A DNA stretch of 63,937 nucleotides, filler included, from Kipferlia bialata (lineage: Eukaryota): the NCBI GenBank assembly GCA_003568945.1. It is 8 parts of 8 records of this genome, joined end to end, with 100 filler letters (N's around TTAATTAATTAA, not from the genome) between each part and the next. Parts side by side here need not be neighbours in the genome. Positions count along the whole stretch, not along the records: positions 10,042 to 15,568 come from BDIP01001532.1; positions 15,669 to 25,601 come from BDIP01001533.1; positions 25,702 to 35,630 come from BDIP01001534.1; positions 35,731 to 45,652 come from BDIP01001536.1; positions 45,753 to 55,673 come from BDIP01001537.1; positions 55,774 to 60,618 come from BDIP01001540.1; positions 60,719 to 63,937 come from BDIP01001547.1; 1 more part is not named here. One strand, written 5' to 3'. The position numbers were made by a program, and so were the translations under genes. The notes under the pieces were generated by a model that was not told the DNA's origin, ran no database searches, and worked only from the letters and a program-made list of their open reading frames with translations. This document shows, piece by piece, positions 14,413-63,871 of the stretch (its first letter is position 1; each line of letters starts with the position of its first letter).

Positions 14413-14785
14413 CTCATGAGGGTGCTGCCCTTGGGGTATGGGGACATCTGGTAGTGGAGCCTGATGAGGCCAAAGACCATGTCCCTGGATATAAGGGTGT
14501 AGAGGGGGAGAGAGAGAGAGAGAATAGATGAGGCCAAAGACCATGTCCCTGGACGTAAGGGTGTAGAGGGAGAGAGAGAGTCAGAGCCAGGTGAGCCACA
14601 AATGTCCAATTGAATATATACTATATACATTCATCTAAAAAAACACTATACCATGTTACTATTCTAGATAGTGTATATACCTCATGTCGTCTGCGAGGTA
14701 GTGGAACTGCTGGAGGGTGCCGTCCTCACAGGCCTCCTTGATCTCAGTGGAGGTGCCAAAGATGGAGGTCTGGAATTAGGGGGTG

Positions 14786-14820
<35 letters not shown>

Positions 14821-15068
14821 GGAGGTGCCAAAGATGGAGGTCTGGAATAAGGGTGAAGAGGGAGAGAGAGAGAAATGAAGAGAGGTGCCAAAGATGGACT
14901 GGTCTCTCGCATACAGTATTGATAGATAATGGTGGGGGGGGGGGGCACATATATAATAGACAAATAGTACTATGTATATATATATATATATATGTACTCA
15001 CCCTGAAGGAGACGTGGTTGTCCTCATCGCCAAGGGACACCTCAAGCTCCTGAGAGTTAAATAAGGGT

Positions 15069-15105
<37 letters not shown>

Positions 15106-15414
15106 CAGAGCAACTGCTATTACCTGGAGGCCGTTCTCGTCGGCATCGGGCCAGACAGAGTCATCCCAGTCCATGACCTTGGTGTTCATGATCTGGTGTG
15201 AAGGGTATATGGAGAGAGAGAGGGAGAGATCAATTGCATACAAAAGCAATACCTGCTTCCTGACCTCCCCGACCATAAGACAAGACAAACATACCTAATC
15301 GTCTATTCATATGCACTCATATATATAATTATATATATATACATACACATACACATATATACATGTCATACCTGCTTCCTGACCTCCCCGACCACAATGG
15401 GGGCAACCTGGAAC
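14409..15414 (-). CDS. MAGO: Mago nashi (exon junction complex core), C-terminal five exons; N-terminus beyond the contig end
   Basis: Exons 15372-15414, 15124-15192, 15002-15049, 14681-14769 and 14409-14484 splice to FQVAPIVVGEVRKQIMNTKVMDWDDSVWPDADENGLQELEVSLGDEDNHVSFRTSIFGTSTEIKEACEDGTLQQFHYLADDMRDMVFGLIRLHYQMSPY. This matches Mago EDD..WP..D..GRQELE...HISF.TSKIG...FYYLVQDLK.LVFSLI.LH. Confidence 0.9.
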
Positions 15415-15732
15415 CTGGGGGGTGAGACAAGGGTGAACGAGTTATATATATATAGTATAATATATGCATTCACAACTACCGGGCAACCTGGAACCTGGGG
15501 GTGAGACGAGAATAGTACAGGATATAAGGGGGGGGGGGGGGGGGGGGGGGGAGGGAAAGGGGAAAAAANNNNNNNNNNNNNNNNNNNNNNNNNNNNNNNN
15601 NNNNNNNNNNNNTTAATTAATTAANNNNNNNNNNNNNNNNNNNNNNNNNNNNNNNNNNNNNNNNNNNNTATATGTATCTATATGTGTATCTATTGAGTAT
15701 ACGAAGAGGGGGAGAGAGAGAGACCTCTCTAG

Positions 15733-16149
15733 ACTGGTGGGGGCAGCAGACAAGGAGACCGTGTTCAAATACGTACCAAGGTATCACAATATTGTACATG
15801 TATATGTATGTATCCCAAGGTATCATTGTGTCGTTACCGGTCTTCAGAGACAGTTGCCAACCTCTCCTAGAATTCTTATTCCGTATATGTATTCTATGTT
15901 TCTGATAGAACATTGCTCACCCCAGGCTTGTCTCTGACCCTGCCTATGCTGCAGAGACCTTTGCCCAGTTAGGCCCTCTGGCTGGGATGGGGGTCACGGG
16001 GGACATACTGCCAGTGCTGATAGGTGAGTAGGGAGTATATAGGTATATGCATATATATATTGAGAGAGAGCGGGGTGGGGGGGTGGAGGGATGGGGGTCA
16101 CGGGGGACATACTGCCGGTGCTGATAGGTATATAGTAAACAATATATGC

Positions 16150-16183
<34 letters not shown>

Positions 16184-18942
16184 GGACGTGGTATGTGATG
16201 GATAGCCATGGGTGTCACGTGGGACATTCTCTCACTGGGACATTCTCCCACTTCTGATCCGTATACGGACGGTGTGCTGTATTGTATAGTTTGGTATATT
16301 TATAATGAACACACACTTCCTCACCCCCCAGCTGCCCACAAGGACTTCCAGACACAGGCCGCGGCATTCCTGGCAAGGTATGCGGTTACCAACCCACTGT
16401 ACAGTTTTGTTACTGCGTGATTACCAATTGTTCTTGTTCTATTTTCTTAATGTATATATGTATATATATATGTCTCCCACCCCAGTGTGCTTGAGAGGGA
16501 TGTCTCTAGAAGGGCCAAGCTCAGGGGCAAGCAGCCAAGAGATGCCACTCTGGAGATGCTGGGTATGTGTCTACCTTTCCCGAATCATACTTTCTCCCTC
16601 CTTCTCTCACTCTCGCTGTAAGTATACACCTGCCCATTCTTTAGACAACTACATTGCCTCTATGACACATACTCTCTCTCTCTGCATTCTCGCTCTCTCA
16701 CTCTTACCATAGGCAACTACTTTGTCTCCATGAACGCTGCATCCATCCGTGACACCCTTGATGAGGGTGGATACAGAGAGCCAGGGGCAGAGCAGGAGAA
16801 GGGGGCAGACTCCGCATTCAGAAGGCATGTCAAGTAGTCATTATATTCAATTGTTCATTAGTGACTTGTACTAAAGTGCACTTAAGTCTCACCCCCAGGT
16901 ACCCCGCCCCTGTTGCCAAGGCTGCCAGACGCATTGTGTCAGTCATATCCACGGCCACAGACGCCGGGCTCATCGATCTCAGGTACAGTGACTTCTTTAG
17001 TAGTGTTGTTAACGTACAGAGTTGTCTCTCATCGATCTGCGATACGCTGCACCTCTGTCTCCCTCTCCCCCTCACTCTTAGATTCACCCTGGGTGTCCTC
17101 GCTAGCTTCGGTCTGCATGAGATCCTCAGTGCTCTGCTGCTAGGTATGATGTAGAGATATTGGTGTGAGTGTGCATTCCATCTCTATCCTCTCTCTCTCT
17201 CTCTCTCTCTCTCTGTAGCATGTGGTATACATGTTATACATACTAACCCTAGCCTCCAACCAGCCCAATGAGGCTGTCTTGGCCGCCCTTGACAGTGGTG
17301 ATAGTGAGCATGCCATAGCCATCGCAGACGACCTTGACAGTGTCAGGAGAAGATATACTAAATATACATGTGTCTCTATATACATATGTATGGTTTATCA
17401 CGCATGGGATCTTACCATAGGGAGGTCCTCCGCTCCATCTGTGTCAGACTGGCCAGTGACGTCAACACACTGGAGCAGGTGTGGAGTTGTGTACATACTC
17501 TTACTGATACAGATACTATATATATATTGTTGTACCATCTCTCTTTTTCCCACCCCCCACCCCACCCCCTCTCCCCCTAACACCCAGGCCCTGCAGTTAC
17601 CTCCCTCTCACTCTCTTCCCCCCTCTACACCCCTTAATACCCAGGCCCTGCAGTTACCTCTCTCTCTCTCTCTCTCCCTCTGCACCCCTAACACCCAGGC
17701 CCTGCAGCTATCTCTCTCTCTCTCTCTCTCTCTTCCCCTCTACACCCCTAACACCCAGGCCCTGCAGTTACCTCTCTCTCTCTCTCTCCCTCTACCTCCT
17801 TAACACCCAGGCCCTGCAGCTAGCCGAGGAGGGCAGGGTGCGTATCCTGGAGCTGCTGCCTGTGCTACCCGAGATGGACAGACCAGGTATAGAGTGTATG
17901 TAAATATGGAGATATCTATTATATATTGATGAATGTACTCACTCTCCAGGCCCTGCCCGTGACCTCATCTGCTCCCACTTCCTAGGGTTCCACAGAGACG
18001 CAGGTATTGTGAGTATATGATTATTCGCATTGTTATGTGGTATGTATTAATAGTACGCACTGTATTGTTTGATATGCCACTTCCTAGGGTTCCACAGAGA
18101 CGGAAGTATTAATTTCACATGTATATATACCCTTACGTAGTGTACCGTCTATATACAACCTAACCCACAGCCGCTGAGAAGGACATTATCCCATATATTT
18201 TGTATGGACTGTATATCACGTATATTATACCTACTCTATATATATTCATTGCCTCACCCCCAGCATCTGAGAAGGATCGGGTGGAGAGGAGCATGACAGC
18301 TGCCAAGAGGATCAGATCAGATCTGGAGGCAGTCAGAGACAGGTAAGGGTTGTAGTGTGGTATAGTATCTATACACTATGCCAACATGCGAATATTTGTT
18401 AATACAGTATATTTAGTACCACACTCTCCCTTACCCTCTAGGCGCTTTGTTGTCAACCGCCGCACCAGTCGGTGCTCCCACCCTGACTGCTCTCAGTTGA
18501 CCATCGCCCATGCCTTTGTTGTGTTCCCATGTGGGCACACATTCCACGAGAGGTGTCTCGACTGCATAGGTGGGGGGCATTCTCTGTACTCTGTAGTCTA
18601 GTCAGTGACATCCCCTGGACCTCCCCTCTCTCTCCCTCTCTCTCTTTCTATGTACTCTATATAGTCTCACCACCAGTCAGTGACATCCCCTGGACCCCCT
18701 TCGAGGACCCCTCCATAGCCAAGGAGAGAGAGAGCGGCAAGGACAAGGAGAGGGAGAGAGAGAGGGAGGAGGCAGAGAGGGAGGCAGAGAGAGAGAGAGA
18801 GAAGGCCAGGCTTGGCCGTGACAACCTCATCTCAGAGTGCCCCTTCTGTGGGGATAGAGACGTGGCCCTCTCCTCTAGAATCATGATACCCATCGGGTCT
18901 CTGCCCTCTGAGAACCTCAGGGGAGACTGGGGGCTCAACTAG
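15733..18942 (+). CDS. VPS18: Vps18/Pep3 (HOPS/CORVET subunit), C-terminal portion, multi-exon
   Basis: Spliced RILELLPVLPEMD...RDLICSHF...SMTAAKRIRSDLEAVRDR, then RING-H2 C..C...FVVFPCGHTFHERCL...ECPFCG...DWGLN*. This is the typical Vps18 C-terminus. Confidence 0.85.
17578..17822 (+). repeat. Five tandem copies of acceptor + exon start (AACACCCAG|GCCCTGCAG(T/C)TA) separated by (CT)n; only the last continues into the Vps18 exon
   Basis: Copies begin near 17579, 17636, 17689, 17750 and 17802. Confidence 0.92.
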
Positions 18943-22500: not shown

Positions 22501-25415
22501 CCTTCTGGAGTCTCTCATGGTATCCCATAGTAGAAACACCAGTGTCTGCCAGTCTCAAGGCAGTACACACCTCCATGTAGTCTGCAACAACTGAGCGCTT
22601 TCCCTGATATCAATAGTAGTGGCCATGAATAGTATGATAGTATACTCATATAGTGTATAATAGGAACACTTACCTTGGGAAGAGTCTGAATATATGGGTG
22701 TAGTCTCGCTCTCTTGGACAGGAACCCGGGCTCAGAGATCCTCTTCTGTTGTTGCCGGGACATTAAGAACCCAGTTCCTAGTACCAACTCCAATGTGGCA
22801 AGACTCAGTCTGTGTGTGGGCCTCAGGGCCTGCACAACTGGCACTAGGTTGCTGATACTGTATGAGGGGGTCTTGACCCGCATACTCTGGTAGTTGCGCC
22901 TGAAGTCCGCTGGGACGGCAGGAGAGCCAAGGGCGAGAGGGAGCGGGGAAGGCGAATGGGCTCTTTGCTTGACATGGCGAATATCAGTCCAGCGCTTGCA
23001 GCCATCGCCACAAGCTGACCGGATGTCTGGTATACCCTAGTAGTGAGTATACTATGAGTCTAATTATGCCACCATATCTAGGTACTCTACACCAATAGAG
23101 TAGTACTATGGGGTTCAAGTACCTTGTGGCTATACTCCCATAGATGTGCCTCCCAGAGGTGTGGTACCCCAGGCATATCAAGAGGGCAAGACACACCATC
23201 ACAGGGCTCCCTAGGCAGATGAATCCTCACGCTGATGTGGTCCATGACACGATGACTGGTGTTGCCGTCCAGATACGCTATCAGGAAGGGGCACTGCTGA
23301 CCGTCACAACACACCTGCACTCCCTCTCCTGTGTGGAATAGGGGTCCAGCGAAGGGGTCAGGTGACTCAGTGTAGGAAGGTGGGTTGGTGGGGTGGTACC
23401 ACCTCTGACGGTGTGTCGCAGTAAGGTCGGGACACAGCACTCCGGCGGGACAGGCAGGGAGACTGACATCAGGACTCCAGTATACTACTGTCCAACACTG
23501 ACTATATATATGCTGAAATGCGAGAAGTACATCAATATGATACTATATGCGTAAACATACCTCGCCATTCCCCCGTTCAGTCTTCTGGTCTCCTCGCGGA
23601 TTCGCTAGCATAAGATATTTGGCTACATTGAATGAGAATGACTTGCAATATATGGGTGTATATTAGTCGATATAGAACCCACCAGAGCTGTCATCTGATC
23701 CAATAGGTCTCCTACCGAGCCTCTCATTGCCGGATCGGTCTGAAGTTACTCAGTATATGTTAATTAATATGGATACATATTATTGAGACTGCTTAGTACT
23801 AAATTGCGGTAGATACCTCCACCATGGAGTTGATTATGGCAGCCAGCCCTGGAACTCCAGTCTCCTCATCGGTCAAGACACTGGGGGATAAGAGTGCAGT
23901 ATAGGAGATATAGAGGAATGAATAGAGAAAAACATTGATAGTGATGTAGCTACTATTCTTATGCATGTATAGTGATGTCATCGTCGGTCAGGACACTGGA
24001 GGTCAGGAATACGAACAGCGAGGAGCTACCATATAAGGAAGATAAGTACACTACATCCCGATATTTCTGGAAAACAAGAGTGTCTAGATATATATGTGTT
24101 ATCTCCCGTACCCAAAGTGTCCTTCCTTGTGGACCAGTCTTAGGTCCTCTCTGTCTTGTACCTCAGACAGCACCCAGTGAGGATGTATCATCTGATAATT
24201 AGTAGAGTGTTAGTTCTACTTCCATTAGTATTAGCCGAATGCAAACTCTCCTATCTATATACCTGGTTGAAGATGAGACCTGCTGAAAAGAGGTCAGCCT
24301 TTGTGCCGTACTGAGGGTCACCGTACTGATCAGGGGGTGACCCATTGGGACGGGCATCGGCACTGTAGGGATAGCACTTGGGTGAGTGGGGATAGACTAG
24401 TATGTATATACACAATATATGTATATGGAATTCAAATATACTTAGATGTAGGACAGACACAATTAGAACACATATGCTGAACTTCTCTCTATGTGTATCC
24501 ACATAGGTATATATAAGACCATATTCCTGAAAGTATAAGGGGAACTCTATTTACACTGACAGACCCTGAATAGACTGACCCGCATACTGATACTGATACG
24601 TCTCTACGCGTATGATCTTTAGGTACTGAAACACAGATATACATATGTGTATATGAGTACAGTGCTGGCACATACCTCAGGTGCCCTGTAGAGTGGGTTC
24701 CCAACATCGAAGGTGGCTGTGATACTCGCCTAATATGAGTGTTGGAGAGAAGTATTCTATGACGACCCAGAGCCAATGAATCAGACTATCCATACAACTC
24801 CACAAGCCCCTTATCTAGAGACTGTGCTATCTATATACAGAATAAGGAGGTAAAGTACATACAGTATACCTCGTGGTACATGGGTTTGCACAGTCCAAGG
24901 TCCACAAAGTGCACGTCTGCACCGTCATCTCGGATGTCCACCATGATGTTGTCTGGCTGATGGTTAGTAGGGGGCTGGTCCTAATAGCAGCGACACATCC
25001 TTAACCAAAAGTATTCAATACACAGTACCTTGAGGTCCCTGTCGATCAGGCTCTGTTACTCCCGGAATAACTATATGTACAGATATATACAATATATATA
25101 CATATATATATTGTATACGCTATACCTTGATGTCCCTGTCGACCAGGCTCTGTTCCTCCCGGTATAACTATATGTACAGATATATACATATATATACATA
25201 TATATATATATATATTGTATACGCTATACCTTGATGTCTCTGTGGATCAGGCTCTGTTCATCTAGGTCTCTGAGACCAACGAGAATCTGAGGTAAGGTGA
25301 GACCCACTATCTTTCATAGTAGTGCTAAGTGTTGCGACGAAGAGAGAGTCAAACTCACATGGAAAATAGAGATAGAATGAGTGCAAGAGAGTTTACCTGT
25401 TCCATGATGGATAAC
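19518..25415 (-). CDS. Multidomain protein: protein kinase C-lobe + 4 PBZ-like zinc fingers + DarT-like ADP-ribosyltransferase domain + 4 PBZ-like fingers + coiled-coil tail (N-terminus off contig; C-terminal end approximate)
   Basis: Phase-consistent exons: 25230-25286 (LIHRDIK), 24870-24956 (PDNIMV...FVDLGLCK), ...YGTKADLFSAG, 24112-24191, 23817-23880, 23683-23739 (DPAMRGSVGDLL), 23561-23604, 23123-23462, 22674-23036, 21884-22603, 21625-21810, 20229-21545, 19919-20190. Eight C-x4/5-C-xn-H-x5-H motifs. Confidence 0.8.
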
Positions 25416-32997: not shown

Positions 32998-33039
<42 letters not shown>

Positions 33040-46187: not shown

Positions 46188-48033
46188 ATGATGAGTGGCC
46201 CACAGGAGAGGGACATAGGCATAGTGGTGGTAGAGCCTGTGGATAGACAGGAGCCGGATAGGAACAGGTAAGAGAGCATGATTCAGGTATCATCATCATA
46301 ATGATTAATCACTGTATGCGCTATAAGTATACATTTACTGTCTACATACAGGATACAACTTTAACATAGTGTCAAGGGGTCAGGGTCGCTTTACAAGGTA
46401 TATTCATATCAGTGGCATTTTTGAATTTGAGACTGAGCCTGTGGTTCAGTATCACACTTACACTCTCCATTCTAACCCCCAAGTGTTACAGGCAAGAGGG
46501 GCCTTAGCAGGACAGCGGTAGTTGCCCTATGCGTAGGTGGAGCTGTAGTCTTACTAGGGGCAGGTGGGTATACATACATCTATATATATATATATATATA
46601 TATGTATCATTCACTTCCCTCACAGTCAGGTGCCCTCATCTACTACCTCTTCTTCCAGCCCGAGTATGACATTGTGCCCTGTGAGGATGTCAATCTGTCC
46701 TACCCATACACCATGGTGGACACAGAGCAGAGGCTGTGCTACGATGAGGTGTTCTTTCTTCCCTCTCTCTCTCTCTCCCTCTGTCTCTCTCCCCCTCTCT
46801 GTCTATCCTAGTGGACACAGAACAGAGGCTGTGCTATGACGAGGTGAGATGCCATTCTCTCTCTCTCTCTCTCTATCTCTTCCCTCTGTCTCTCCCCCCC
46901 CTCAACCCCTACCTAGCAGGATGTCAGATCACTCTCTCTCCGTGAGTGTTTGTGAGTGTCTCTCCCTCTCTCTCTCTCTTACCTCTTAGGATGGCGTTGA
47001 GATCACTGCCCCCTCTGAGTCAGACGAGTACTACGGACAGGACGCCCAGTACACAGGTATGCATGGCATATATCTGTCTCTCTACGTGTCTATTTACCTG
47101 ACCCCCAGGTGTGGGTGCCTCCTACCATGACAACCTAGACGGGACAGTGACAGACATGTCAACAGGTATACCAACACACACACATATATATACTCAAATA
47201 TGTGTATACACCAATATATATATAGTCTGTTGAGACGGGACAGTGACAGACATGTCAACAAGTACAGCTCTCTCTCTCTCTCTCTATGTGGGTGGGATCC
47301 ATCAGTCTCTACCTGATCCCCCCCCCCTCCCAGGCCAATTCTTTATCTTTCTCTTCAAGTTTTATTCATCCTTTCACCCACAGACCTCATCGAGTTCTCT
47401 CTCTCTCTTCTTCCCTTCATTCTGATCTCTATAATGAATCCTCTCACCCCCAGGCCTCATGTGGGTGCAGCCCCCCCCTTTGACACCGTATCTTTCGATG
47501 ATATTCTGCCTCTTAGTTATATATATATGTATATACTCCATCAACTCACCCAGGCCTCATGTGGGAGCAGGCTACTTCACAATCTGTCTCTTCCTCTATC
47601 ACTCTATGATAGAGTCTATCACTCTTAGTTATATATATATGTATATAGTGTATCCTCTCACCCCCAGGCCTCATGTGGGAGCAGTCCCCCCCCTCGGACA
47701 CCGTATCATTCGATGGTGCTGCTGACTATTGCACAGACCTAGACCTGGGGGGGTATGATGACTGGAGGGTGCCCTCACTCAAGGTAGCATTAGATACAGT
47801 ACTATACTGCACTAGTAATAGTATGCTATACTACTCTATATTACGGTCTCTAATTCTGTGACGATGACTGGAGGGTGCCCTCACTCAAGGTATATAGTAT
47901 ACTATTATACTATACTATATTATAGTATGCCATAATGTAGTATATTATGCTCTCTTATACTGTGACGATGACTGGAGGGTGCCCTCATTCAATGAGTATA
48001 CACTGTGCTCTTCCTATCTCTCTATCTGTCCCC

Positions 48034-48070
<37 letters not shown>

Positions 48071-50921
48071 CATTTTGTACTGTGATATGATGCTCATATG
48101 ATGACTTGAGGGTGCCCTCACTCAAGGTACATACTCCGCTCTCTCCTACTCTCTCTCTCTCTTGTCCCTAGGAATACTGTATGCTCTCTCCCCAACCTAT
48201 ACTCCAGGCTCTCTTGTCTCTCTCTCCATCTCTCTCTCTCTGTATTTGTAAAACTTACCCCCAGGCCCTCTTCTCCATATCTCTCTTTCTCTCTCTCTGT
48301 CTCTTACCCCAGGCCCTCTTCTCCATCTCTTTTTCTCTCTCTCTCTCTCTCTCTTACCCCCAGGCCCTCTTCTCCATCTCTCTCTTTGAGACAGGCTGGC
48401 CATTCATAGACGAGGACTACTTTACACTGGTAGGTTTCTCTCTCTCTCTCTCAATATTCGTACATGATATATATACATGCCCTTGAGTACTACTTTACAG
48501 TTAAGTCTTCAGCCTGGTATGCTAAGCTCTCTCTCTCTCTATATATATACATATCAATGTCAGTCATATACACTTCTAGCCCTCAGGTCGATGTCCGGGA
48601 GGAGAAGTCCCAGCAGTACTGGTCAGACCAGTTCTACAACGCAGGTTGGTACCGTCTCTCTCTCTATATATATATATGTACAATACTGTACTATATTTAC
48701 TACATATATGTATAAACACACATATATATACCTATATTTGCCTCCCACCAGGCACCACCCATGGGGGCCAGGACAGTTGTACATATATGTATATATACAC
48801 TCTAGATATATACCTCTATATACCCCCTCATACCCCTCCCTATCCCCAGTCACCACCCATGGGGGCCAGGACAGGCTTGTACTATCTGTCTCACTCCATC
48901 TATACCTCTGTATGTATATGTATATTCGCATACCCCACCCCAGGCACCACCCATGGGGGCCAGGACAGTTGTATATATAGATACATATATATATACTATC
49001 ATTTAGATACACATTCTTATACTCCAGGCACCACCCATGGGGGCCAGGACAGTGCCTTTGGGGTCAACCATGGGACAGGGCACATCAAGGTATCTAGTAG
49101 TATGTGTTTACCTCTCTATCTCTCTTTCTATTCCTCACTAACGTTGTTCCTCTCACCCCAGGCCTACCCTGACGGCTCCGATGGGGGTGACATTGCATGG
49201 AAGTACTGCAGATGTGTCAGGGGGAATGGGGACTACGGGGTCAATGACTTCACACTGGTATGGCTCGATTTCTCTATCTCTCTTCTTCTCTCTCTGTCTG
49301 TCTCGCTCATATATATCATAGATCATGGGCTGAATAACTATACACTGGTATGTGTGGTGCTGCACTTTGCTCTCTCTCTCTCTCTCTCATATACAGGACT
49401 CCTCTGCCTCCACTGTCTCTGTCTCTCTCCCTGACACCCTAGGACCCCTCTGCCTCCGCCGTGTCTGATGCATCCTCTCTCTCTCTGTATCTCTCCCTGA
49501 CACCCTAGGACCCCTCTGCCTCCGCCGTGTCTGATGTATCCTCTCTCTCTCTCTCTCTCTCTCTGATACCATAGGACCCCTCTGCCTCCACCGTGTCTGA
49601 TGCATCCACCAACATCATGTGGACAAGTACAGACAGTGGGGCCACAGGTACACTCATATGTCTAGACACTGTATACACTGTATATACACCATATTTGAGT
49701 TTACTTGGGCCACGTGGACAAGCACAGATAGTGGTGCGACAGCTACCCTTTTCACTTCTGTATTTACACACACACATATATTGACATCATATGGGGACAA
49801 AGAGTGGGTCTGTAGTCATCTGGTTGGTGGTATATTCTATACTGTTTATGCATCAGCGGTTTGCTGTTACTCTCTTTCAACCCCCAGGTCTGGACTGGTC
49901 TGATGCCCTATCTCACTGTTCCTCTCTCTCCCACGGTGGCTACGACGACTGGAGACTACCCAACGTTAAGGTACCATCATTGTCTAACCATACCCAACTG
50001 TGTCACTCAATTATATACTATGTATTCTTGGTTCTCTCTGACAAAATTGAGAATGCATTTATATACTATACGGAGTATACTTAGTAAGCTATTCCATTAT
50101 CACAACAGTTCTATCTCATTCATAGGGGCGCCACAGTATTGTGGACAACTCAGACCACATGATATATTGTATCACACCTGCATACATTATCCTGTCTCTC
50201 CCTAACACCCTAGGAGCTCCACAGCATAGTGGACTACTCTGGTGTCTATCCAGCCATCGACACCAGTCTGTTTGAGGTGTCTGACCCAACTGCGCTGTGC
50301 CTCTATTACTGGACATCGACATCTGCATATGTACGTGATATGTATGGAGTGTGACTGTATACTTACAATGAGTGATTTCTATGTAGAACCTACTGCCCTA
50401 TGTCTCTATTACTGGACATCGGCCTCCGCCTATGTACGTGTATGTATTTGGTATACTGGAGTACTATGCATATAGTATGAACAGTTGATATACCGGCATT
50501 CGCCTTCTATTCACACTTGTGTGCCATGACCCTTACCCCCAGATGAGCCCCACCGACACTGTCATGTACTATGCGTGGTACGTGGCCTTTGGCTATGCGG
50601 TAGATGACAACGGAGACGACACACACGGGGCAGGGGCTGTACGGTTTGACACAAAGTGAGTGAAATATTTGTAGTGTTCAGCGCTGCCCTTATAGTACTG
50701 GCTGTGTTCATCTTTCTCATGTAGATATGTTGGAACAGTGTTGTGTCTCTAACCCTAGGTATTCTGGTGGTCCCAGTATCAGTGTCTATTCCGGTATTCA
50801 TCTCTCTCGTATATGTTATAGTGTGTTTGATCACAGGTATGCCGGTGGCCCCAGTGCCGAGGAGGAAGAGAATGTGTACAACTACGTCAGGTGCTGCAGG
50901 GACATGGACACCACAGTGTAA
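46188..50921 (+). CDS. Type II membrane-anchored protein with two DUF1566 (Lcl C-terminal, C-type-lectin-like) domains; start uncertain
   Basis: Spliced TM AVVALCVGGAVVLLGAGALIYYLFF, then YGQDAQY, DNLDGTVTDMSTGLMWEQ, GGYDDWRVPSLK, YCRCVRG, VSDASTNIMW, GGYDDWRLPNVKELHSI, AWYVAFG, HGAGAVRFDTK, YNYVRCCRD...*. About 13 or more introns. Confidence 0.88.
47450..49600 (+). repeat. Exon-border echo arrays in the DUF1566 gene introns
   Basis: CAG|GCCTCATGTGGG x3 (about 47450, 47550, 47665); GATGACTGGAGGGTGCCCTCACTCAAG|GT x4 (about 47758, 47863, 47967, 48100); CAG|GCCCTCTTCTCCAT x4 (about 48205-48375); CAG|GCACCACCCATGGGGGCCAGGACAG x4 (about 48748-49052); AG|GACCCCTCTGCCTCC x4 (about 49395-49590). Confidence 0.92.
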
Positions 50922-51216
50922 CAGTGACGCTGTGCATGATTCTGTGGTCCAGACGAGCCATTATCCAGCATCTGAGTATGGGAGTGGTTTTCAGAAGCCA
51001 GGTGAAATTCTCTTTCTGTGGCTACCCATTTGCCATGTGTAATATATCCATGTGTGAATGATCCGAATAGCCCGAATAGAACACACTATTAGTTGGCCTA
51101 ATTAGTCCAATGCCTAAGCTCCTCTACTCCTCTGCCTCTATGGCACTTGATGACTGATGACTGTCTCCAAAGTGAACAGTGCCTATAGGCCTCTACTCCT
51201 CTATTCCTCTATTCCT

Positions 51217-54200
51217 CTATTCCTCTCCTTGTATGCACCCTGGCAGCATGGCACCTCTGTTGAGTGTAACAAGGTAGCACTGGGGTGAGCTAGGGTGTAA
51301 CAGTAAGGCCAACGCAGTTACTGAGCTCTAATGTCATGACACTATCAACCACACATACCCGTGCCCAAAGAGAGAGGATAATACGCTCATATATATAATA
51401 CGCTCATATCTGATATATACGAGATATGACTCACAGAAGGTATTACAATGAATATACATGAATATACATATATATATATATATACGAGGTATGACTCACA
51501 TGTCCATCCGTCCTCAGCAGGATGCTGTCCCCCCCCACAGGTACTGCACACCCATCCCCACTGCCATCCTCATAGCCCTGAGGATTAGGAGTGTCATATA
51601 TATACATATACATTTGGTATAGTCCAGAAGGTTATATACATACACTTGCTGATGAGGCCCATCCCCACTGCCATCCTCATAACCCTAAGGAGTAAGGTAC
51701 AGGGGGTATATAGTATATCCACTCTATCTAGTAACTACACTACACGTTCATTGCCACATATATAGAGTAGATACTGACACTGCCGTCCTCATAGCCCTGG
51801 GGGGTGAGGCAGGGGATACACACACTGTCATATATATATATATATATATATACAGCAATATATACTCGACACTGACACTGCCATAGCCGTCTAGTGATAC
51901 GTTAGTATATACATGCCCCTCACCTCCGTTGTCCACTTCTGCCAGGTGCCTGAGACACTATATACTCATCTATGTATATACAGGTGTATTCTGTATGCAT
52001 TTATCATGAGACTGACAGGCTATTTAACCGATAGGTCACTCACCTCCGTTGCCCACTTCTCCCATGTGCCTGAGACAGTGTCATAGGCATTGACCTGGGT
52101 CAGTACACATACACTACAGACATACTATACATGTAAATATATATTACATGTATATGACCACATACTAAATGCATGTGCCTGAGACAGTGTCATACACTAT
52201 ATACAACAATACCTGCAATAGTATATAGGATATGACCTGGGGGTGAGGGGTGTGCTTGTGTATGCATATATATAGTGCATTGACCTGGGGGTGAAAGAAG
52301 GAGCATGCGAGTATGTGTACATCTAACAAGTTCTACATACACCGACCATGTATATATATAATGACACGTAAATGGCTAAGGGGAACACATGATGATGCGT
52401 ACCGTCCTGTATGTGTACCCGTTACCACCCATGCACACCACATACTGGCCAATGGTACAGACAGCACACTGGCTGGGGTGAGGGGGAGTGTATAACAACA
52501 GCCACTGAGAGAGAGAGGTGGTCAACGAAATTTGTCAGAAAGAAGAATGAGAGAATGTGAGTAAGACACTGTAAACATACCCTGGCCCCAGGTGTGTGTG
52601 TGTGTCATGGTCGCACAGGACAGTCCAGCCATCTCTGAGGGAGAAGGTCATGTGGGTGAACTAGGGGTGAGGACAGGTGGTATAAATATCCCATACGGAA
52701 TCAGAGACAGGAGAGAGAGAGAGTAGTTCATGTGGGTGATTTCTGAGAAAGCGAGAGGGAGAGAGTGTGTGTGACAGTACCTTCCCTATCATCATATATT
52801 CCAATAGAGACAAGGAGAGGGTGAAGGTCATTGGTGCATGTATTGAAGACACATCACCATATATATCAATATACATCACGACTGGACTCCGTGAATAGAG
52901 AGAGAGAGAGAGAGACAGAGAGAGAGAGTACCTTCCCTATCAGGTGAAACGTGTCCCCGACCAGTGTGCCCGATGCCCAGTAGACATTGGGGGTGGGGTA
53001 GCCAGCCAGACGGGTCCAGATACCTGATATCAGGGGAGGAGACAAGAGCACTAATATACATACATACATACATACATACACCAGTGTCTGTATCGTTATA
53101 ATGTACGTGAGTGCATATATAACTATTTAGTCTCTCTAGTCTCTCTCTGCCAATATTTGAACACATATACAGTAGATGTACACACCTGTCTGTGTGTCAT
53201 ATGCCCATGGTGCCATATCACTAGTGTAGGACTACATCATCGTCCCAGTCCTCATATATATATATATATATAACCACACATACATATATAGTATATACCC
53301 ACCTGTTTCAGTGTCATATGCCCATGTTGCCATGAGTGCATCATTGTCCCAGTCCTCATGGTACAGGGACGGCACACCAGCACCTATCACTAACACGGAG
53401 CCTGGGTGTTAGGCGAGTATACATATAATATGAGGAGAGTAGATATAGTGGTAAGAATAGATACTCCTGTGTATAGCTGCCCGTATCACAGTCAAGTGGA
53501 GGTATTAACCATAGGGAGAGACGTAGACGTGATGGTAGAGAACAACTATACGCACACACATCCACCCACACATATATATACATATATATATGTATATGTA
53601 TGTCCACCATACCTATAGCAAATGCAAAGTGGCGCCACTTGCCCTGTGGCCAGGGGGCACCCTGGGGGTAAGGGGCGATATTCTCAACACACAACGAACA
53701 AATAACACACACACACATATATATATCCTACTATATATGTCCCCCCACCTCTGGTTATGGCACCTCTGTCCACATACCTATGACCCTCCACATGGTGTAT
53801 ATATGTATGGAGAATACATAGTATATATAGTATATATATACACGCTATATACAGCCCACTCACCTCTGGCCGTGGCACCTCTGTCCACAATTCTACATTC
53901 ACATATAGGATGTATTGTTTACACATATAGTGGGTCGCACCTCTGTGTGCGGCACTTCTGTCCACTCATTGGTGCCCATGTTGTATGTGTACAGACTGTT
54001 GACTGCCTCTTCATCCCCATGGTGGCCACCAAACATGAGGACCTTAGGGTAAGTATTAACACATANNNNNNNNNNNNNNNNNNNNNNNNNNNNNNNNNNN
54101 NNNNNNNNNNNNNNNNNNNNNNNNNNNNNNNNNNNNNNNNNNNNNNNNNNNNNNNNNNNNNNNNNNNNNNNNNNNNNNNNNNNTACATGTTATTGACTGC

Positions 54201-55229
54201 CTCCTCATCCCCATGGTGGCCACCAAACATGAGGACCTGGGTTAGTATATGTACCCACATCTATATATATGTATGTGCATATGCACACCTCACCTTCCCG
54301 TCCTCCATCCTGGTGACACTCATATATATATATACTTCTCTATATATATGTACATATAATGTATAAGACTTAGATATATACCTATCACATACCCACCTTC
54401 CCGTCCTCCATCCTGGTGACACTCACACCCCACATGTCACTGGAGGTCAGAGGGAGAGGGAGGGAGGGAGGGGGAGAGGGATAGAGAGAGAGAGGCTAAC
54501 AAGACCACATATCCCACAACTCCACCTCTCTATTCATACAGATATCGGTGGATATAAGTATGAGAGAGAGTATTAGGGTCAGATGCACTGTACCTGGGCA
54601 CTATGCAGTCTCTGATGCCAAAGGACCTGATGCCTCCCTCTGGGGTCAGGGACATATGCAGATAGAGAGAGATATGGAATGCAGAGAGAACAAGAGAGAG
54701 AGAGAGAGAGAAAGACTACCTGGCGTGACTCTGACCAAACTGCAGTATGGCCCCTCTCTGTCAGGAGGGGGGTGGCCCATACGATAATAGGGGGAGGATG
54801 CACCCATGAGAACAGCACATCCTAGAGGGTGAGAGAGAGAGAGAGAGAGGAAGAGAGAGAGAGAGTAGGGGGAGGAGGCACCCATGAGGACAGCATAGCC
54901 TAAGGTGGGAGGGGGGGAGGGAGGGAGAGAGAGAGAGAGGGATAGACTGCTGATATAGACAGTACACTTAGTGGGAAGAGAGAGAGAGACAGCCTGTGAG
55001 AATGAGGAATATGCAGTGATCTCAGCTGGGGGGGGGAGAGAGAGAGAGACAGAGAGAGGCAGGGTACCTGGTGTATCACATGGCACCATGGAGAATGCGT
55101 CTCCGCATGTCGGGATATTTACCTGAGGTGGGAGTCACTATATGAGATATGCGGGACATTGATGCAAGGGAAGAACCAGTATATATACATATATGTGACA
55201 CAAACCTTCTTAAAACTGAGGTGCGGCAT
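51217..55229 (-). CDS. Kelch/galactose-oxidase-type beta-propeller protein, multi-exon
   Basis: MPHLSFKK|VNIPTCG...; VLMFGGHHG...LYTYNMGTNEWTEV, PWPQGKWRHFAFAIG, WAYDTETGIWTRLAGYP, VGDTFHLIG, AYDTVSGTWEK kelch-blade motifs. Confidence 0.85.
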
Positions 55230-55812: not shown

Positions 55813-55838
55813 ATCAATTTGACCCTCCCTGACCCCCC

Positions 55839-58502
55839 GACTGGAAGTGGGGTGACCAGGATGGAATGGCAGGGGTCGGGGTCATACTAGGGCCAAACAG
55901 GTGAGCATACTTGACACACTTTCTGGATAGTCTCTCTGTGTACTACTAGTATAGATTTCCGTTCATACACATTGGTTGCCAGGTTCAAGAGCCTCCTAAT
56001 ATATTCTCACCCCAGCAACGAGTCTGAGCTAAGGGTGGAGTGGGAGGGTAACCAGATTGGCAATTACAGGTGCATGTTCGTATATATATATATATATATA
56101 TCTTACCACCACATGTCGCTACCACACCGAATGTGGAGTCAATTCGCTTCATTCGATTATACATATGCTACACTTTCTCTGTCCCTCCCTATCCCCCAGG
56201 TGTGGTGCCCAGGGCATGTTCGACCTGGTGTATGCAGGCGAGGTGGGTGGGCATTCATGTATTAGCAATAGAAATATTTTGTATTTGTGTATGCGTGGCA
56301 GACCTCTCTCTCTCTAAAATCTAACCACAGGGCGACCTCTCCAAGTACAGTCACCCCCGGTCCCACAGGTGTGTAATGTGTAGAGGTCTCTACGTATATA
56401 TTCTCTCCGTATGGAGACCTCGCGGTCATATACCAGATGTATCGCCCTTCCTAGAGTACTGCATATCACTATGTGTTTGTATGTACACTAACTGTTACGC
56501 GAACTGAACAATGTGGTGAAAGTATTGAGAGTACGCATAGTGGTACAACCGGAATTGTCCTTCCATCTGTAGACACAATAGTTACCTCTATCTCGTTATG
56601 TCAGTGTATATCTCTGCACAGTATCTGAATCCTCTTTCACACCCAGGGTAGTGCACTGTCCCTCCATGCAGGTGGGAGCCAAGGTCACACGGGGGATAGA
56701 CTGGATGTGGGGGAACCAGGTACACTGGGCTAGCAAGAACTCTAGTGAAATTGGTACATTGCTGGAATAGTCTTGGGAGATTGTAAATACATATACCCCC
56801 TGGGTCATACCGCTGTTGTAGCAACACCCCTCATCCTGTAGGACCACGGTCTCCCTGGTGTTATCCTGCCTTTGGAAGTGGACCCTGCCACTCAGGAGTG
56901 TGTAGAAAGGGAAAAGGGGTGTGTGGTGGTGCAATGGTCAGATGTGAGTGGATATCATACCGTGTCTATATAGTATATAGTGATATCATAGTGTTAGTCT
57001 ACCCTTTCCTGACCTCTAGGGCACCATCAAGGTGTACCGTGCTGGTCTGCAGGGCAAGTACGACATAGCATATGTGGACACACCCTCTATAGTGGCCCAG
57101 GACTATGGCACAGACCCAGTGCCAGAGACAGTGGTGCCAGTCAAGGTATGTTGTGGTCTTAGTATACTCACCTTGACATTTCCGTTCAGTGCCTGACCCC
57201 CAGGGTCTCCGTGTCCACTCTTCCAAGTGGGTGAGGGGTGCCAGAGTGGCACGAGGGCCAGGTATCAACGCCGTCACACAAGGAGACGAGGCATTTCGTG
57301 TATAGAATACTGATAGGCATCTCACCCCAGACTCTATGATGTTTATTGAGTATAGTCACTAGAACCCACCTCTCTCACCCCAGACTGGAAGTGGGGTAGT
57401 CACGCAGGGAGAGAGGGCACTGGCATACTGGAGGAGGGGGAGGATCAGGCATGTGCCTGTCACTATTATGGATTCAGATCTCTATTACTATCAATATATC
57501 CCCCCATACCCTTCCTATCCCTCACCCTCCAGTCGCTATGTGTTAGGTGGAGCACAGGCATGAAGAGCGGATACAGGTGGGTGGCACACTGACAAATATG
57601 TATATTTCCATGTATGTAAGGCTCGAACTGCGTGGTGTCTCCATGATCCTTCCCTTGACAAGAAGCATTTGCAGTAACTGTGTTGTTACGGAACATACTA
57701 ATTGCCAGGTGTGGTGTCCATGGTGTGTATGGCCTTGTTTACACTGGGGATGGTTGCACAGAGGAGTATGCGTGTGACCCTGCCATGAGGGTGGAGGCCG
57801 GGGATGCCTTAAGGGTCGGTGCTACAGTGGTGAGGTAGGGGGTAGCAGTCGTGTATATAATCATTTATACAATGACTCTATGGGATTGTATATTAGCTAA
57901 CTTCTAGGGGTCTCGACTGGTCGTTCGGCGATCAGGACGGAAATGGAGAGGGGAAGGTGCGTATATCAAAATGTAATACAATGACTATTCTACGTGAAAC
58001 TGATGGCGTTGGGAATTATTCTTGCTCTTGGCATTATCTACCTTATAGCTGCTATAGAGACACTACACTAGTATACATATATACATATATAGTCATATTC
58101 ACCTTAGGTCCTGGGCAATGACTGCGAGGGCCAGGTCCTGGTCAAGTGGGAGAATGGAGTCACAGCCAACTACAGGGCAGGGGCAGGTGGGAAGAGAATC
58201 ACTCGCTCTCTCTCTCACACACTCTTTCGGCTATACACTCTCTTTGACTCTTTATACAATTCACTTCCACCACCAAGTGTGTATACCTCACTGCAGGTAA
58301 CTGCTATGACCTCCTGTACGTTGACACTGGCTCTGGGGAGTCCCTTCCCTCTTCTGAAGTGGCTGAGGCTTTGACAACCACTAGTACTGGTGATATGCCT
58401 AGTGCTGGAACTGCTGGTACTGGTGTCTCTTGTGAGGATAAGGCAGACACTGTGGAGAGACTCAGACAGCAGATCAAGGCCCAGATGGGGGGGAAGGAAT
58501 AG
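55839..58502 (+). CDS. Protein with four or more tandem MIB/HERC2 domains, 5' truncated
   Basis: Repeated GxxVxRGxDW(K/M/S)(W/F)GxQDG...VxWExGxxxNYRxGxxGxxDL: DWKWGDQDG, VGAKVTRGIDWMWGNQ, GARVARGPDWKWGS, VGATVVRGLDWSFGDQDG...VKWENGVTANYRAGAGNCYDLL. Stop TAG at 58500-58502. Confidence 0.85.
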
Positions 58503-59575: not shown

Positions 59576-60573
59576 TCACATGCCTGCCAGCTGCATGCTG
59601 AGCTTCTGGGCCAGCGCCCCCATGGCCGTACCTGGTACCACCAGGACCAGCCCCCTGGGCCCTGTGCCGCTCTGGTGCTGGGGGCCCTCGGGGTTGGGGA
59701 TCTTGAAGGAGAAGGCAAGGTCGGCCATCTCAAGCAGGGGGAGGTCCTGGGGTGAGGGGTCTGTATATATGGTATATATGGTATATATGAAGTAGATATA
59801 GGCAGTGAGTGAGAGGGAGTACTTGAGCAGGGGAGGTCCTGGGGAGAGGACAATATCTATCTGTCTAACTATCAACGAGTGATAGTGACAGAGAGTGCTG
59901 TAGAATACACAATAAGGAAACCACGTCCACACCCACCTCCGGCCTGAAGAATGCTGTCTGGGACACTGGGATGCCGCACACCATGTCTGACTGACCCCTC
60001 TTGTTGGGGTTGGTGGCAGGGGCGCCATCGGCTGGGGTGGGGAGAGAGAGAGAGAGAGAGATGTGCACTATATCCACGCCCCTTCCTCCACTGGAGAGAG
60101 AGGGAGAGACAGGCATACGGGTATGTAATAAGATATGAAGAGTGATACCTTCCTCCACGGGAGATATCATGGACACGTGGATGAGGTGTGTGAAGGGGGA
60201 GAAGCCGGGGATCTCCTGCTCGGCCCACTGGCAGTCCTGGGGTATGAGAGGGGTGTGGGGATACGCTATATACAGAGAGAGACAGAGACAGAGAGGGGGT
60301 ATAGAACCTCTGCTGCTCGGCCCACTCGCCGTCCTAGGAGAGAGATGTGAATATACTGTATATATATAGGTACCTGGTCTGTGGACTGGTATATGTCTCT
60401 CTCTCTCCATCTCTCTCTCTCTCTCTCAATATATATATATATATATACATATATTTCACACCCCTACCTGGTCTGTGGACTGGTAGATGCCTGGCAGCAG
60501 GGGCAGGGGCAGAGAGACAAAGCGTCCTGTCACAATCAGACCCGGGTTGGCACCATTGGCACCGGTGGCAACA
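59576..60573 (-). CDS. BCCIP: BCCIP/Bcp1 family protein, C-terminal four exons
   Basis: GLIVTGRFVSLPLPLLPGIYQSTDQDCQWA...THLIHVS...FFRPEDLPLLEMADLAFSF...PRGLVLVVP...M*. Matches the BCIP pattern GLLLxERFxNxP, FxxxEE, PxRxVxL. Confidence 0.8.
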
Positions 60574-60873
60574 CTGGGGGTGAGGGGGGGGGGGGGGGGG
60601 GCACCCTTCTTTTTGGGGNNNNNNNNNNNNNNNNNNNNNNNNNNNNNNNNNNNNNNNNNNNNTTAATTAATTAANNNNNNNNNNNNNNNNNNNNNNNNNN
60701 NNNNNNNNNNNNNNNNNNTGCCCTGTCCCTTTAATACTCCCCCCCCCCCCCACCCCCCGCCCTCTCTTTCTCTCTCTCTCTTACCCCTCAGAGAGGACTA
60801 CAAGCTGGACACCCTGCTTGATCTCATATACTCTCTCTCTCACTCTTTCTCTCTCTCTCCTCTTACCCCTCAG

Positions 60874-61738
60874 AGAGGACTACAAGCTGGACACCCTGCT
60901 TGACCTCTTTGAGTCCCTCACTGTCACACAGTCAGTCATCTTCGTCAACAGGAGGTACGCCCCCCCCACCCCCTCCTCCTCTCTGTGTGTGTATGCCTCT
61001 CTATATCTCTTTGTGTTCACTCTCCTTACTGCCACATCCCCTGTATCTCGGGTTACTCTGTACTGTCTTCCCTAACTCCCAGGAGTGGCGCTGACTGGCT
61101 CTCTGGCCAGCTCAGGACCAAGGGCCACACTGTGGGAGAGGTGCACGGAGAGATGCCCCAGGAGGTACATATATACTCTCTCTCCCTCTCTTTCTCCCCC
61201 CCCCCCTATCTTAAGTCTTATATCTATATATTTCACCCCAGGTCAACGTTGTCATCAACTACGACCTCCCCTCCAACAGAGAGACATACCTCCACAGGAT
61301 CGGAAGGTGAGGAAGCCACATATATATACTACATGTATGTATATACCACAATTGATTAGTTGCTGTGCCTCTCTCTTCTCCTTCTCACTCTCCAGGTCCG
61401 GTCGTTTCGGCCGCACTGGCATCGCCCTGTCCTTTGTCACCAAGGAGGTAGGAGTGTTAAATGAATATATATATACTGTTTATATAGCACAACATGTATG
61501 CACTCATACACACATATATGTATTTGAGTCCCTCACTCTCAGGAGGTCCAGGTCCTGAGGGACATCGAGCAGTTATACATATATATTAGTCTATATTGAA
61601 TGAGTATATATATATATGTCCTATATGTATTCACACTTTATCATGTATGTCTCTCACCCTCAGGAGGTCCAGGCCCTGAGGGACATTGAGCAGTTCTATG
61701 CCACATCCATCCCAGAGCTCCCCATCAACCTCATGTAG
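60874..61738 (+). CDS. eIF4A-family DEAD-box helicase C-terminal domain (possibly eIF4AIII); motif-V exon absent from this assembly
   Basis: [27 protein letters not shown] | SGADWL...VHGEMPQE | [22 protein letters not shown] | [14 protein letters not shown] | [20 protein letters not shown]. Confidence 0.88.
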
Positions 61739-62127
61739 AGAGGGTGCATGTGTCCCCTTACCAGTAGGGTTAATGTATACGTGTAGAGAGGGTGCATCAC
61801 CCCATACCTGTAGGGTATAGCTGTGCACACGTGTATGCGGAACATGGAGACATATGTGGTTGTGTTGTGTTGTAGAAACATGGTTGAGTAAATATTGAAG
61901 ATACTTGGGAGCTGCTATGACTGCCTTTCTGGGGTGGTTCTAGGCGTGCTGTGACTCACTGAGAGAGTCGATGCACACTATATGCAAACTTACATTGTAT
62001 ACGCGCTGGACCCTTATGAAAATGCGAGACGAAAGGGTGCAGATTAGTTTTGGCTGACGATGATCGTGTTGTCTGCCTCTCTACCTTACCCACTGAGGGG
62101 CCACACTCCACCACAGCCCACAGACAC

Positions 62128-63582
62128 ATGTTCAAGTTCCGGCTGTCTCATGTCGGGCACCGTGGTAATCGTAGCGGGATGGCGTACATTGGGGGTCTGA
62201 CTGCCGAGGGTGACATTGATCCATACAGTGAGACCCTGGGGCGTGTCATCATTGTTGGTGAGAACAGTCAGACCAGCAGTGACAACTGCGTTATTGCCAC
62301 CCTCGATGCTGAGACTGGGAGTATGTCTCACAGGGCCATTCCATGTCCTGTGCCTGCCCTTCGCTTATCGACTGCTACTAGGGTGGGAGAGTGGGTGTTT
62401 GTCTTCGGTGGGAATCCAGGTTCTGTTGACACTCTCTACCGGTTCGACATAGCCACTGAGAAGTGGACCCAGGTGCAGAAGAGAGGGGTGTGGCCCAAGG
62501 GCAGGTGGGGGCAAGGAGCCTTCTCACTCGGGGGGAAGCTGTTCATCGCAGCGGGTTGCGATGGATCCAAAATCTCTTCTGCCTGGGTCTTCGACCCCCA
62601 GGGTGAGACTTGGACCCAGCTACCTGACTACCCCGTTGGCCTTCAGCGTCCTGCTGTGTGTACTGTTGGGGATCGTGTACACCTGATAGGAGGATCTGCA
62701 CCCACCACTCACTGCACCTACTCTGAGGCAGGTGGGTGGCACAAAGAGGCAGACCTGCCATTTAGGGTCTATGGTGCAGGTGCTGTGGCCGTGGGATCCA
62801 ACATCCATGTCATGGGTGGGAATGGTCACAGCAACCAGGTACACGTGTATGACACCGTGACCAAGAGATGGGAGGAGTCTGGGACACTCCCCGTCTCATT
62901 CAGCTATGGCAGTGCATGCTACACCACACCTTCGAGTGTGATCATCCATTCTGAGAAGCAGCTCATTATTGGGGAGTCAGAGGAGCTCAAGCAGAAGCCT
63001 GAGAGGGAGAGGCTAGCACAGGAGGAGAGAGACAGAGTGGCAGCCCAGTTGGCAGAGGCAGAGAGGCAGCGTGTGTACCAGGAGCAGGTCTCCCTCCTCC
63101 ACTCCCTTGTGACTGACCTTGGGTGTGATGTGGAGGGTGTGGCGTCTCTGACACCCGAGGAGTGCAGGCACCACATCCTGTGCACAGTGGCAGCCAGGGA
63201 GGTTGACAGGAGGAAGACTGAGCTCTGCCCTCGGTTCTCAGCCTTCGACCCGTCCTCTCTCCCACCCCTCAGGACACTCATCAGTGACGCAAAGGTATGC
63301 AACCCCCCCTTCCCTCTTCACCTCTTCTTTGTATCTCACCACACTCTCTCGACCCCCCCCCCCTCTCTCACTCTCTCATTACTCTCAGCATTTGCAACCG
63401 ATACCTCAGCGTGTCTCTTTCTCTCTTTCTCTCTCTCTCTCTGTTTGCATATATACGCCTCTGACCCCAAGCCGTTGACGCCGTTGACGCCAGTGCCCTC
63501 AGTCTCTCTTCATTCTCTCTCCTTCTCTCTGCATATTCTTTCCTGTCTTTCACAGGCCTTTGATGCCGATGCCCTTCGCCCC

Positions 63583-63619
<37 letters not shown>

Positions 63620-63871
63620 ATATGTACAAGAATAACCTCAGGCCTTTGACGCCGATGCCCTTAGCACAGCACTGGCCAACCTCAGTGAGTACCTGCCACT
63701 GGCAGAGCGCATAGACCCACAGGTGCTCTCACTCACTCCTCTCTCTCTCTCTGTCTTGCCGTAAGTGCTGTGTCAATGAGGGTCAACCTCTCGGACCTCA
63801 TGTCCCTCTCCATCCCTCATATGTCAGGTGAAGACTCTCAAGGAGTTCACTGCCCAGCACCCAATAGACAA
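62128..63871 (+). CDS. Kelch-repeat beta-propeller protein with a C-terminal coiled coil; continues off the window
   Basis: Exon 62128-63294 has six blades (VFVFGG...FDIATEKWT, WPKGRWG, FDPQGETWTQLPDYP, VHLIGG, IHVMGG...YDTVTKRWE), then ERERLAQEER... Later exons lie near 63642 and 63828. Confidence 0.88.

Follow-up and report, generated by a model that had tools for sequence, protein, structure and literature searches.

Introns in a 63,937-nucleotide (nt) stretch of the genome of Kipferlia bialata, a free-living fornicate, were found to carry additional, diverged copies of the exon borders that adjoin them (assembly GCA_003568945.1). This stretch, here called the window, consists of nine stretches of eight scaffolds with N spacers between them, and all results given below are at the scale of the window. 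Three of its open reading frames show 100% identity to public K. bialata proteins; metagenome scans with queries P0001 and P0011 revealed no relative and no second isolate. Tandem duplication combined with selection very probably forms the core of the explanation for these junction copies. A further step, exchange between diverged haplotypes, is in our judgment evenly poised between right and wrong.

Abundance and structure of junction copies

Gene models (21 genes, 165 exons, and 144 introns) were curated by coordinates because an automatic gene finder took decoy splice sites for exons. They leave out a leucine-rich repeat (LRR) gene at positions 1-1900 and several long open reading frames, and a few small exons were probably missed. 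Blocks g41 and g38, whose frames are uncertain, were excluded from codon tests, and one doubtful g38 acceptor match together with an exon piece at 31452 was excluded from some tests. The DUF1566 model equals the public 423-amino acid protein, and the Vps18 model equals the public model except around one intron. A branch-point A lies 7-9 nt before the intron end in 113 of the 144 introns.

Local alignment of exon sequence alone against the adjacent introns yielded 76 exon-derived copies, distributed over 38 of the 144 introns, 13 of the 21 gene models, and 7 of the 8 scaffolds. With introns of other genes as the null, 0.25% of 1614 unrelated exon-intron pairs passed, corresponding to approximately 0.7 expected matches. 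The first-pass annotation of this DNA had reported such echoes in at least ten genes on seven contigs, and the scan bears this out. The near exon border was touched by 66 of the 76 matches, with the other 10 starting 9-25 nt from it. No match touched the far border, and none of the 76 carries an entire exon, unlike tandem or mutually exclusive exon duplications. The threshold misses short copies, with one of the four decoys in the Vps18 array being scored. An annotation-free census detected 101 near-repeat loci at a spacing of 30-300 nt, compared with 0-2 in three block shuffles, and 100 of these loci were junction copies (88 overlapping scan matches and 12 of the remaining 13 recognized by eye). 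None of the loci lay wholly within the 26 kb of exon, and none in the 12 kb of unmodeled DNA away from junctions. The lack of intron-only and intergenic duplications is not proof of targeting, because copies diverged by 30% escape the 90% cut-off.

The repeated unit has a median length of approximately 97 nt and includes an exon part of 12-57 nt (median, 29). The copy size of 15-50 nt given in the earlier annotation thus holds for the exon part but not for the full unit. Units are arranged head-to-tail, each comprising intron flank and a short exon piece, with up to four repeats per side, and together they amount to 25% of the intron DNA. Copies were present in 31 of 47 introns of at least 200 nt versus 2 of 82 introns shorter than 150 nt, and after removal of the units the intron cores had a median length of 107 nt, compared with 108 nt for copy-free introns. 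Both the proposal of real, repeated tandem duplication and that of intron expansion by it were supported.

Whole-unit identity was 61-92% in 52 pairs, with no unit exceeding 92%, and copy families held 2-5 copies. The mismatch rate was 7.5% for the exon part versus 30% for the flanks, with a sharp step at the junction, and in several copies the flanks are diverged but the exon part is perfect. Greater decay of distal copies, as noted earlier, was apparent in 11 of 16 multicopy families (3 reversed, 2 tied) but not in the pooled mismatch by copy rank, which was flat (7.2, 8.2, and 7.9%). The copies matched the adjacent exon only, unlike sequences with a dispersed mobile-family (introner) source.

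Two further repeats were observed. An exact 16-nt piece of a downstream exon at 31452-31467 (+) lies upstream of donor copies and out of tandem order, and may be what is left of a duplication that took in the whole intron. The LRR-like gene (1-1128, -) contains exon pairs repeated at a spacing of approximately 775 nt; these are whole-exon repeats, unlike the junction copies, and no junction copies were found on its scaffold.

Independent assembly of the copies

We compared the window with Logan contigs of run X1, which were produced by a different assembler, possibly from the same reads; the figures refer to the eight longest contigs listed. At a likeness cut-off of 97%, the contigs matched the window without any other letter or gap. 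Among these eight contigs, at least 14 of 27 copies are joined to their true junction within a single contig, without a mismatch, and copy-bearing contigs have a depth (430-480) like that of neighboring unique DNA. Differences between copies occur every few bases, so that the words spanning the junctions have to be present in reads. Stutter of the assembler, or the tandem assembly of two alleles at microsatellites, would suit a fragmented, short-read draft, pieces that end in simple repeats, and the allele-like divergence described below; run X1 may moreover be the source of the window DNA, and 12 of the 27 copies fall outside the eight contigs. We nevertheless consider artifact the most improbable of the alternatives, given that the second assembler reproduces the tandem order at the depth of unique neighbors and that the range of whole-unit identity is not stutter-like. 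At 54042-54236 (-), an acceptor copy and the true exon of the kelch gene are separated by a scaffold gap, which would be expected where such repeats break assemblies.

Splicing of decoy sites

The RNA evidence is a contig of run X2 that covers the DUF1566 gene; its RNA nature was guessed by the tool, but introns are skipped. The 1462-nt contig matches six exon pieces of the gene, and a model with the last acceptor and the first donor at each copy array is likewise 1462 nt long, with the correct offset at 6 of 6 anchors and the inner boundaries checked by length only. Given that length and offsets both fit this exon-proximal model, all 19 scored DUF1566 copies are absent from the main product. 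The Logan joints table was dominated by microsatellite mis-joins and was uninformative on decoy use. Upstream acceptor copies and downstream donor copies thus appear to be skipped, and from this one gene we infer a choice of sites resembling exon definition. Protists with short introns are usually assumed to rely on intron definition. The skipping of up to four intact sites consisting of branch point plus AG argues against intron definition.

The decoy sites are largely intact, as had been claimed. An AG was present within 3 nt of the expected position in 30 of 34 acceptor copies and a GT in 26 of 29 donor copies, and 26 of the 30 acceptors and 23 of the 26 donors had scores exceeding the 5th percentile for real sites. 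This intactness, together with coding-like divergence and the read-through of one decoy in the public Vps18 model, might suggest that decoys are functional, serving as stepping stones of recursive splicing or as alternative mini-exons kept by selection. We hold this to be improbable: the DUF1566 contig contains no decoy, 54 of 61 decoys, if used, would introduce a stop or a frameshift, neutral models yield the same retention of AG and GT, and the Vps18 family profile favors the non-decoy model by 16 bits.

The Vps18 comparison was based on a profile of 53 homologs, with a score of 125.8 bits for the curated model versus 109.8 for the public model; the last acceptor of the array (exon start 17811) gave the best fit. 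The intron at 17353-17420 (+) that best fits the family begins with AT rather than GT. The public model instead takes a GT 13 nt upstream together with the fourth decoy acceptor, which restores the frame. This discrepancy may stem from faulty annotation, from a donor that is non-canonical, or from a donor mutation that a decoy rescues, and decoys appear to mislead gene prediction, as in Vps18. A GC donor is required for an open frame at 57449-57532 (+), in a gene with MIB/HERC2 domains that has 13 introns and no scored copies.

Polarity and breakpoints

In the arrays, the last acceptor copy continues into the exon and the first donor copy remains on the full exon, a pattern that matches the polarity described in the first-pass annotation. 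Its reading as the sign of a special process did not hold, given that any tandem duplication across one acceptor or donor itself sets this order; polarity shows only that the events were tandem. In a simulation with copy-free architecture (exons of ~76 nt, introns of ~100 nt), random placement of the observed unit lengths crossed one junction in 65% of cases, the remainder affecting a whole exon (14%), a whole intron (8%), intron only (10%), or exon only (4%). Exon pieces of more than 50 nt accounted for 3 of 63 copies versus 40% expected at random, a difference to which alignment trimming contributes. Such short pieces would be in keeping with selection against decoys whose exon portion is long enough to compete, and protein-level selection could account for the missing classes of coding duplication.

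Dinucleotide runs of at least 10 nt were present in 30 of 36 copy-bearing introns versus 27 of 108 others, a comparison confounded by intron length. Among acceptor copies 18 of 34 broke near such a run, and among donor copies 8 of 30 did so (26 of 64 in all), compared with 24% for random positions in the same introns, and the extent to which the run reached into the exon piece (microhomology) was 0.53 nt versus 0.25 nt for the null (P = 0.0025). The link to microsatellites proposed earlier is thus partial, being real for acceptors but not general.

Activity and intron gain

Neither the description of the process as ongoing nor the suggestion that it seeds intron gain was supported. Unit identity did not exceed 92% and thus gives no sign of present activity, with the reservation that identical young copies would collapse or break contigs. 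With regard to the latter, border repeats were 2.87 versus a null of 2.87, with none of the 144 introns showing repeats of at least 8 nt. Intron gain is unsupported in the window because no intron among the 144 resembles its flanking exons at the borders, and no new intron derived from duplicated sequence was found in the DUF1566 contig.

Coding-like divergence of copies

Copies made from the same molecule should show a ratio of mismatch at 4-fold degenerate to that at 0-fold degenerate sites of no more than approximately 2, because a dead copy changes everywhere and the exon at silent sites only. Mismatches between copies and exons were found at 65 of 1188 0-fold, 38 of 314 2-fold, and 56 of 303 4-fold sites, giving a ratio of 3.4 (family bootstrap, 2.1-5.2; P = 0.014 for a ratio of ≤2). 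Synonymous changes made up 78 of 145 unique changes, compared with 26% at random and a ceiling of 41% (p = 0.001), amino acid replacements were conservative (P = 0.0013), and the 4-fold excess vanished in shifted reading frames. The first-pass annotation had overlooked this divergence. Four simulation settings with 15-20% prior allelic divergence gave ratios of 3.3-4.1, and a diverged-homolog model yielded mismatch rates of 0.052, 0.126, and 0.179 at 0-, 2-, and 4-fold sites versus observed values of 0.054, 0.120, and 0.184.

Two other signs of a homolog origin were rejected as proof. Conservation of AG and GT is reproduced by neutral simulation, and flank divergence is inflated by slippage and by forced end-to-end alignment.

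Slippage on the same molecule or misalignment of sister chromatids, followed by neutral decay with low-complexity flanks mutating approximately three times faster, would explain the anatomy, polarity, and splicing of the copies equally well, and would attribute the synonymous excess to chance, to a few genes, or to faster substitution at third positions of exons. The 3-fold flank rate fits the divergence of flanks (0.30) and of AG and GT (0.07-0.09), and acceptor copies taken alone are consistent with it. With the same detector, however, 12 same-molecule parameter sets gave ratios of 1.5-2.06, with a probability of at most 0.023 for a ratio of ≥3.4; the excess persisted after removal of CpG sites (42 of 274 4-fold versus 49 of 1135 0-fold sites); and no unit exceeded the identity limit given above. 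An inverted paralog pair, at 10253-11995 (+; small exon 11384-11431 left out of the model) and 12310-13846 (-), showed mismatch of 13% at 0-fold and 33% at 4-fold sites and approximately 30% in two of three introns, so that introns do not appear to change faster than 4-fold sites. We therefore regard an origin within one molecule as unlikely, though well ahead of the remaining rivals.

The step in divergence at the junction, with perfect exon parts beside diverged flanks, might also be explained by old duplications in which gene conversion, with the exon, spliced mRNA, or cDNA as donor, refreshed the exon part. This explanation is very improbable: AG and GT, which are absent from mRNA, are kept as well as the exon part, and conversion from the same allele should not raise the ratio above 2. 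An origin of the copies from cDNA was rejected, given that copy flanks showed 30% mismatch versus 41-44% for unrelated flanks.

Genes and other observations in the window

The genes and copies are listed in Table 1. In the eIF4A-like gene, two exons flank an apparent gap in the helicase COOH-terminal domain at 61164-61242 (+), where some 30 residues seem to be missing, as a result of deletion, a simple-repeat mis-join, or divergence of a paralog. Among the prokaryote genomes scanned, the DUF1566/Lcl_C gene has four relatives, all in spirochetes, with 40-64% over segments, which makes it a candidate transferred gene that may have gained all of its 14 introns.

Table 1 Features of the window and their junction copies.
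Feature	Position	Strand	Copies and remarks
Mago-like gene (name presumed; two exons without Pfam match)	14410-15497	-	Acceptor copies 14527-14548, 14819-14841, 14882-14898; donor copy 15253-15278
Mago-like gene, further acceptor copy	near 15481-15507	-	
Vps18, 3' part	15735-18942	+	Donor copies 16088-16127, 16208-16258, 18077-18102; acceptor copies 16646-16665, 18602-18624
Vps18 acceptor array	17574-17822	+	Decoy exon starts 17588, 17645, 17699, 17759; conserved acceptor, exon start 17811
Kinase-like exon 25286-25230	25026-25286	-	Donor copies 25126-25158, 25029-25057; single-exon Pfam search without match
Gene at 31-35 kb	31352-33566	+	11 copies in three introns
Gene at 31-35 kb, notable copies		+	Two 57-nt donor copies (32231, 32328); acceptor copies 33177, 33269, 33382
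36-kb block	36010-36440	-	Donor copies 36017-36068, 36133-36177; acceptor copy 36400-36427; frame uncertain
4Fe-4S-domain gene	44243-45639	-	731-nt intron: four donor and two acceptor copies; next intron: two donor and one acceptor
DUF1566/Lcl_C gene	46188-50921	+	15 exons; 19 scored copies in 9 of 14 introns
Kelch gene	51200-55122	-	12 scored copies
Gene earlier labeled BCCIP (presumed, unconfirmed; two exons without Pfam match)	59577-60573	-	Donor copies 60374-60398, 60082-60097; acceptor copy 60309-60333
eIF4A-like gene, 3' part (name presumed; short single exons without Pfam match)	60764-61738	+	Acceptor copies near 60790 and 61543-61577
Kelch gene KIPB_006158	62116-63722	+	Acceptor copies 63480-63502, 63556-63587, before exon start 63642

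Discussion

We slightly favor an origin of the copies in misregistered repair synthesis together with haplotype exchange, filtered by exon-proximal choice of splice sites. Repair synthesis would restart approximately 100 nt back, probably often on the homologous chromosome, and leave a tandem unit crossing one junction. Template switching would proceed via short homology, often (CT)n, with either homologous recombination (HR) or polymerase theta at work and with nonhomologous end joining (NHEJ) missing from the lineage. Selection would remove duplications of whole exons, whole introns, exon-internal sequence, and long exon pieces, and the remaining copies probably survive since the site joined to the full exon is the one that the spliceosome chooses. 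Copy and exon would descend from two functional haplotypes approximately 15% apart at synonymous sites, either because the duplication was templated by the homolog at birth or because copy and exon recombined later, two routes that predict the same signal.

Ku and DNA-PKcs are absent from metamonads, which are thought to rely on HR, and PolQ and Spo11 are listed for K. bialata in a supplementary table (PMC8516963). Template switches in break-induced replication that microhomology mediates (MM-BIR) occur at homologies of 2-5 nt (PMC7407515). The draft genome of K. bialata was assembled from short reads and contains 124,912 GU-AG introns, and its two k-mer peaks were taken as diploidy; intronic duplications are not mentioned in the available parts of that paper (PMC5874029). 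The fused branch point and acceptor of introns in the window resemble those described for diplomonads, and 87 of 174 spliceosomal proteins were found in K. bialata (PMC6679479).

Several observations weigh against the origin that we favor. The synonymous excess, a post hoc finding, is suggestive, and the parameters of the diverged-homolog model were picked to fit. The gene bootstrap of the ratio gave P = 0.028, and the ratio was uneven, being 5.2 for donors and 2.1, not above 2, for acceptors. It fell to 2.8 (P = 0.08) without the gene at 31-35 kb, to 2.8 (P = 0.23) for annotation-matched genes alone, and to 2.4 in a fixed 18-nt window (1.6 without the 31-35 kb gene). For the first 18 nt after acceptors it was 1.1, with mismatches at 7 of 104 silent versus 21 of 347 replacement sites; low silent divergence at exon starts may reflect splicing constraint. 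Changes private to inner copies were mixed (4-fold, 11 of 88; 2-fold, 4 of 103; 0-fold, 18 of 390). In the protein collection, three genes had one member each and no second, diverged allele, a result also expected for an origin within one molecule. Alternative letters were likewise absent from the Logan X1 contigs, with the likeness cut-off of 97% being such that a diverged allele would be hidden. Breaks showed no microhomology to a run in 48 of 64 cases, and donor breaks were not enriched at runs. Finally, the RNA evidence consists of one gene and one kelch exon, its RNA nature is a guess, and contigs drop rare isoforms.

More tentatively, and with somewhat less than even confidence, we propose that Kipferlia introns form an archive of extinct alleles, in which NHEJ-less repair from the homolog, slipping by approximately 100 nt, leaves behind the exon border of the other haplotype. 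If so, a quarter of intron DNA would consist of such scars, tens of thousands in number, a synonymous diversity of approximately 15% would be recorded in a single genome, and the reduced spliceosome of a fornicate whose introns are short would choose its sites by exon definition. Allele-like divergence, if real, would make a single genome the record of earlier recombination and diversity in a free-living fornicate. The copies represent a specific way in which introns can lengthen and, at scale, a natural experiment in splice-site competition. Application of the proportion of 38 of 144 to the 124,912 introns reported (PMC5874029) suggests, by extrapolation from one window, that some 30,000 introns are affected species-wide.

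The first-pass annotation knew of no prior description of this pattern. None was found for Kipferlia or on a genome-wide scale, but single loci are known, in human F7 IVS7 and potato RdRp; in the literature searched, with subscription papers mostly outside the search, there was no account of such density or of allele-like copies. In globin constructs with tandem splice sites (Reed and Maniatis 1986), an inner site with a truncated exon reportedly loses to the outer site of the full exon. Those constructs were artificial and were studied in mammalian extracts, whereas the Kipferlia cases are natural and many and their exon pieces are short.

The unit of the 37-bp minisatellite of human F7 IVS7 spans an exon-intron border, like the Kipferlia copies, and its downstream donor pseudo-sites are intact but silent, with the most upstream site being used (PMC1557585), as for the donor copies of the Kipferlia DUF1566 gene. 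That case concerns one locus with near-identical units and donors only (PMC1557585). In Kipferlia, approximately a quarter of introns are affected, units are ~97 nt long with 61-92% identity, both donors and acceptors are involved, and families of many near-identical units were not found. In potato RdRp, the 3' end of an intron and the start of an exon are duplicated, as in Kipferlia; splicing in potato takes the upstream acceptor, and a new intron arises with the help of a cryptic GT, demonstrating a route of intron gain via tandem duplication (PMC4974935), whereas the upstream copies in the one Kipferlia gene covered by RNA are skipped. In common with the potato case, duplications in the window supply splice signals within genes. 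MM-BIR template switching and the patch-mediated duplications of rice share size class and short homologies with the Kipferlia copies; confinement to junctions and allele-like divergence are Kipferlia features undescribed for these duplications in the available parts of the source (PMC7407515). Intron sequence and splice sites likewise derive from local intragenic duplication in both internal gene duplication (Gao and Lynch 2009, cited in PMC4974935 and PMC2809761) and AGGT duplication (Hellsten 2011, PMC3265369). The Kipferlia copies differ from both in their density, their narrow range of unit size, and a divergence like that of coding homologs.

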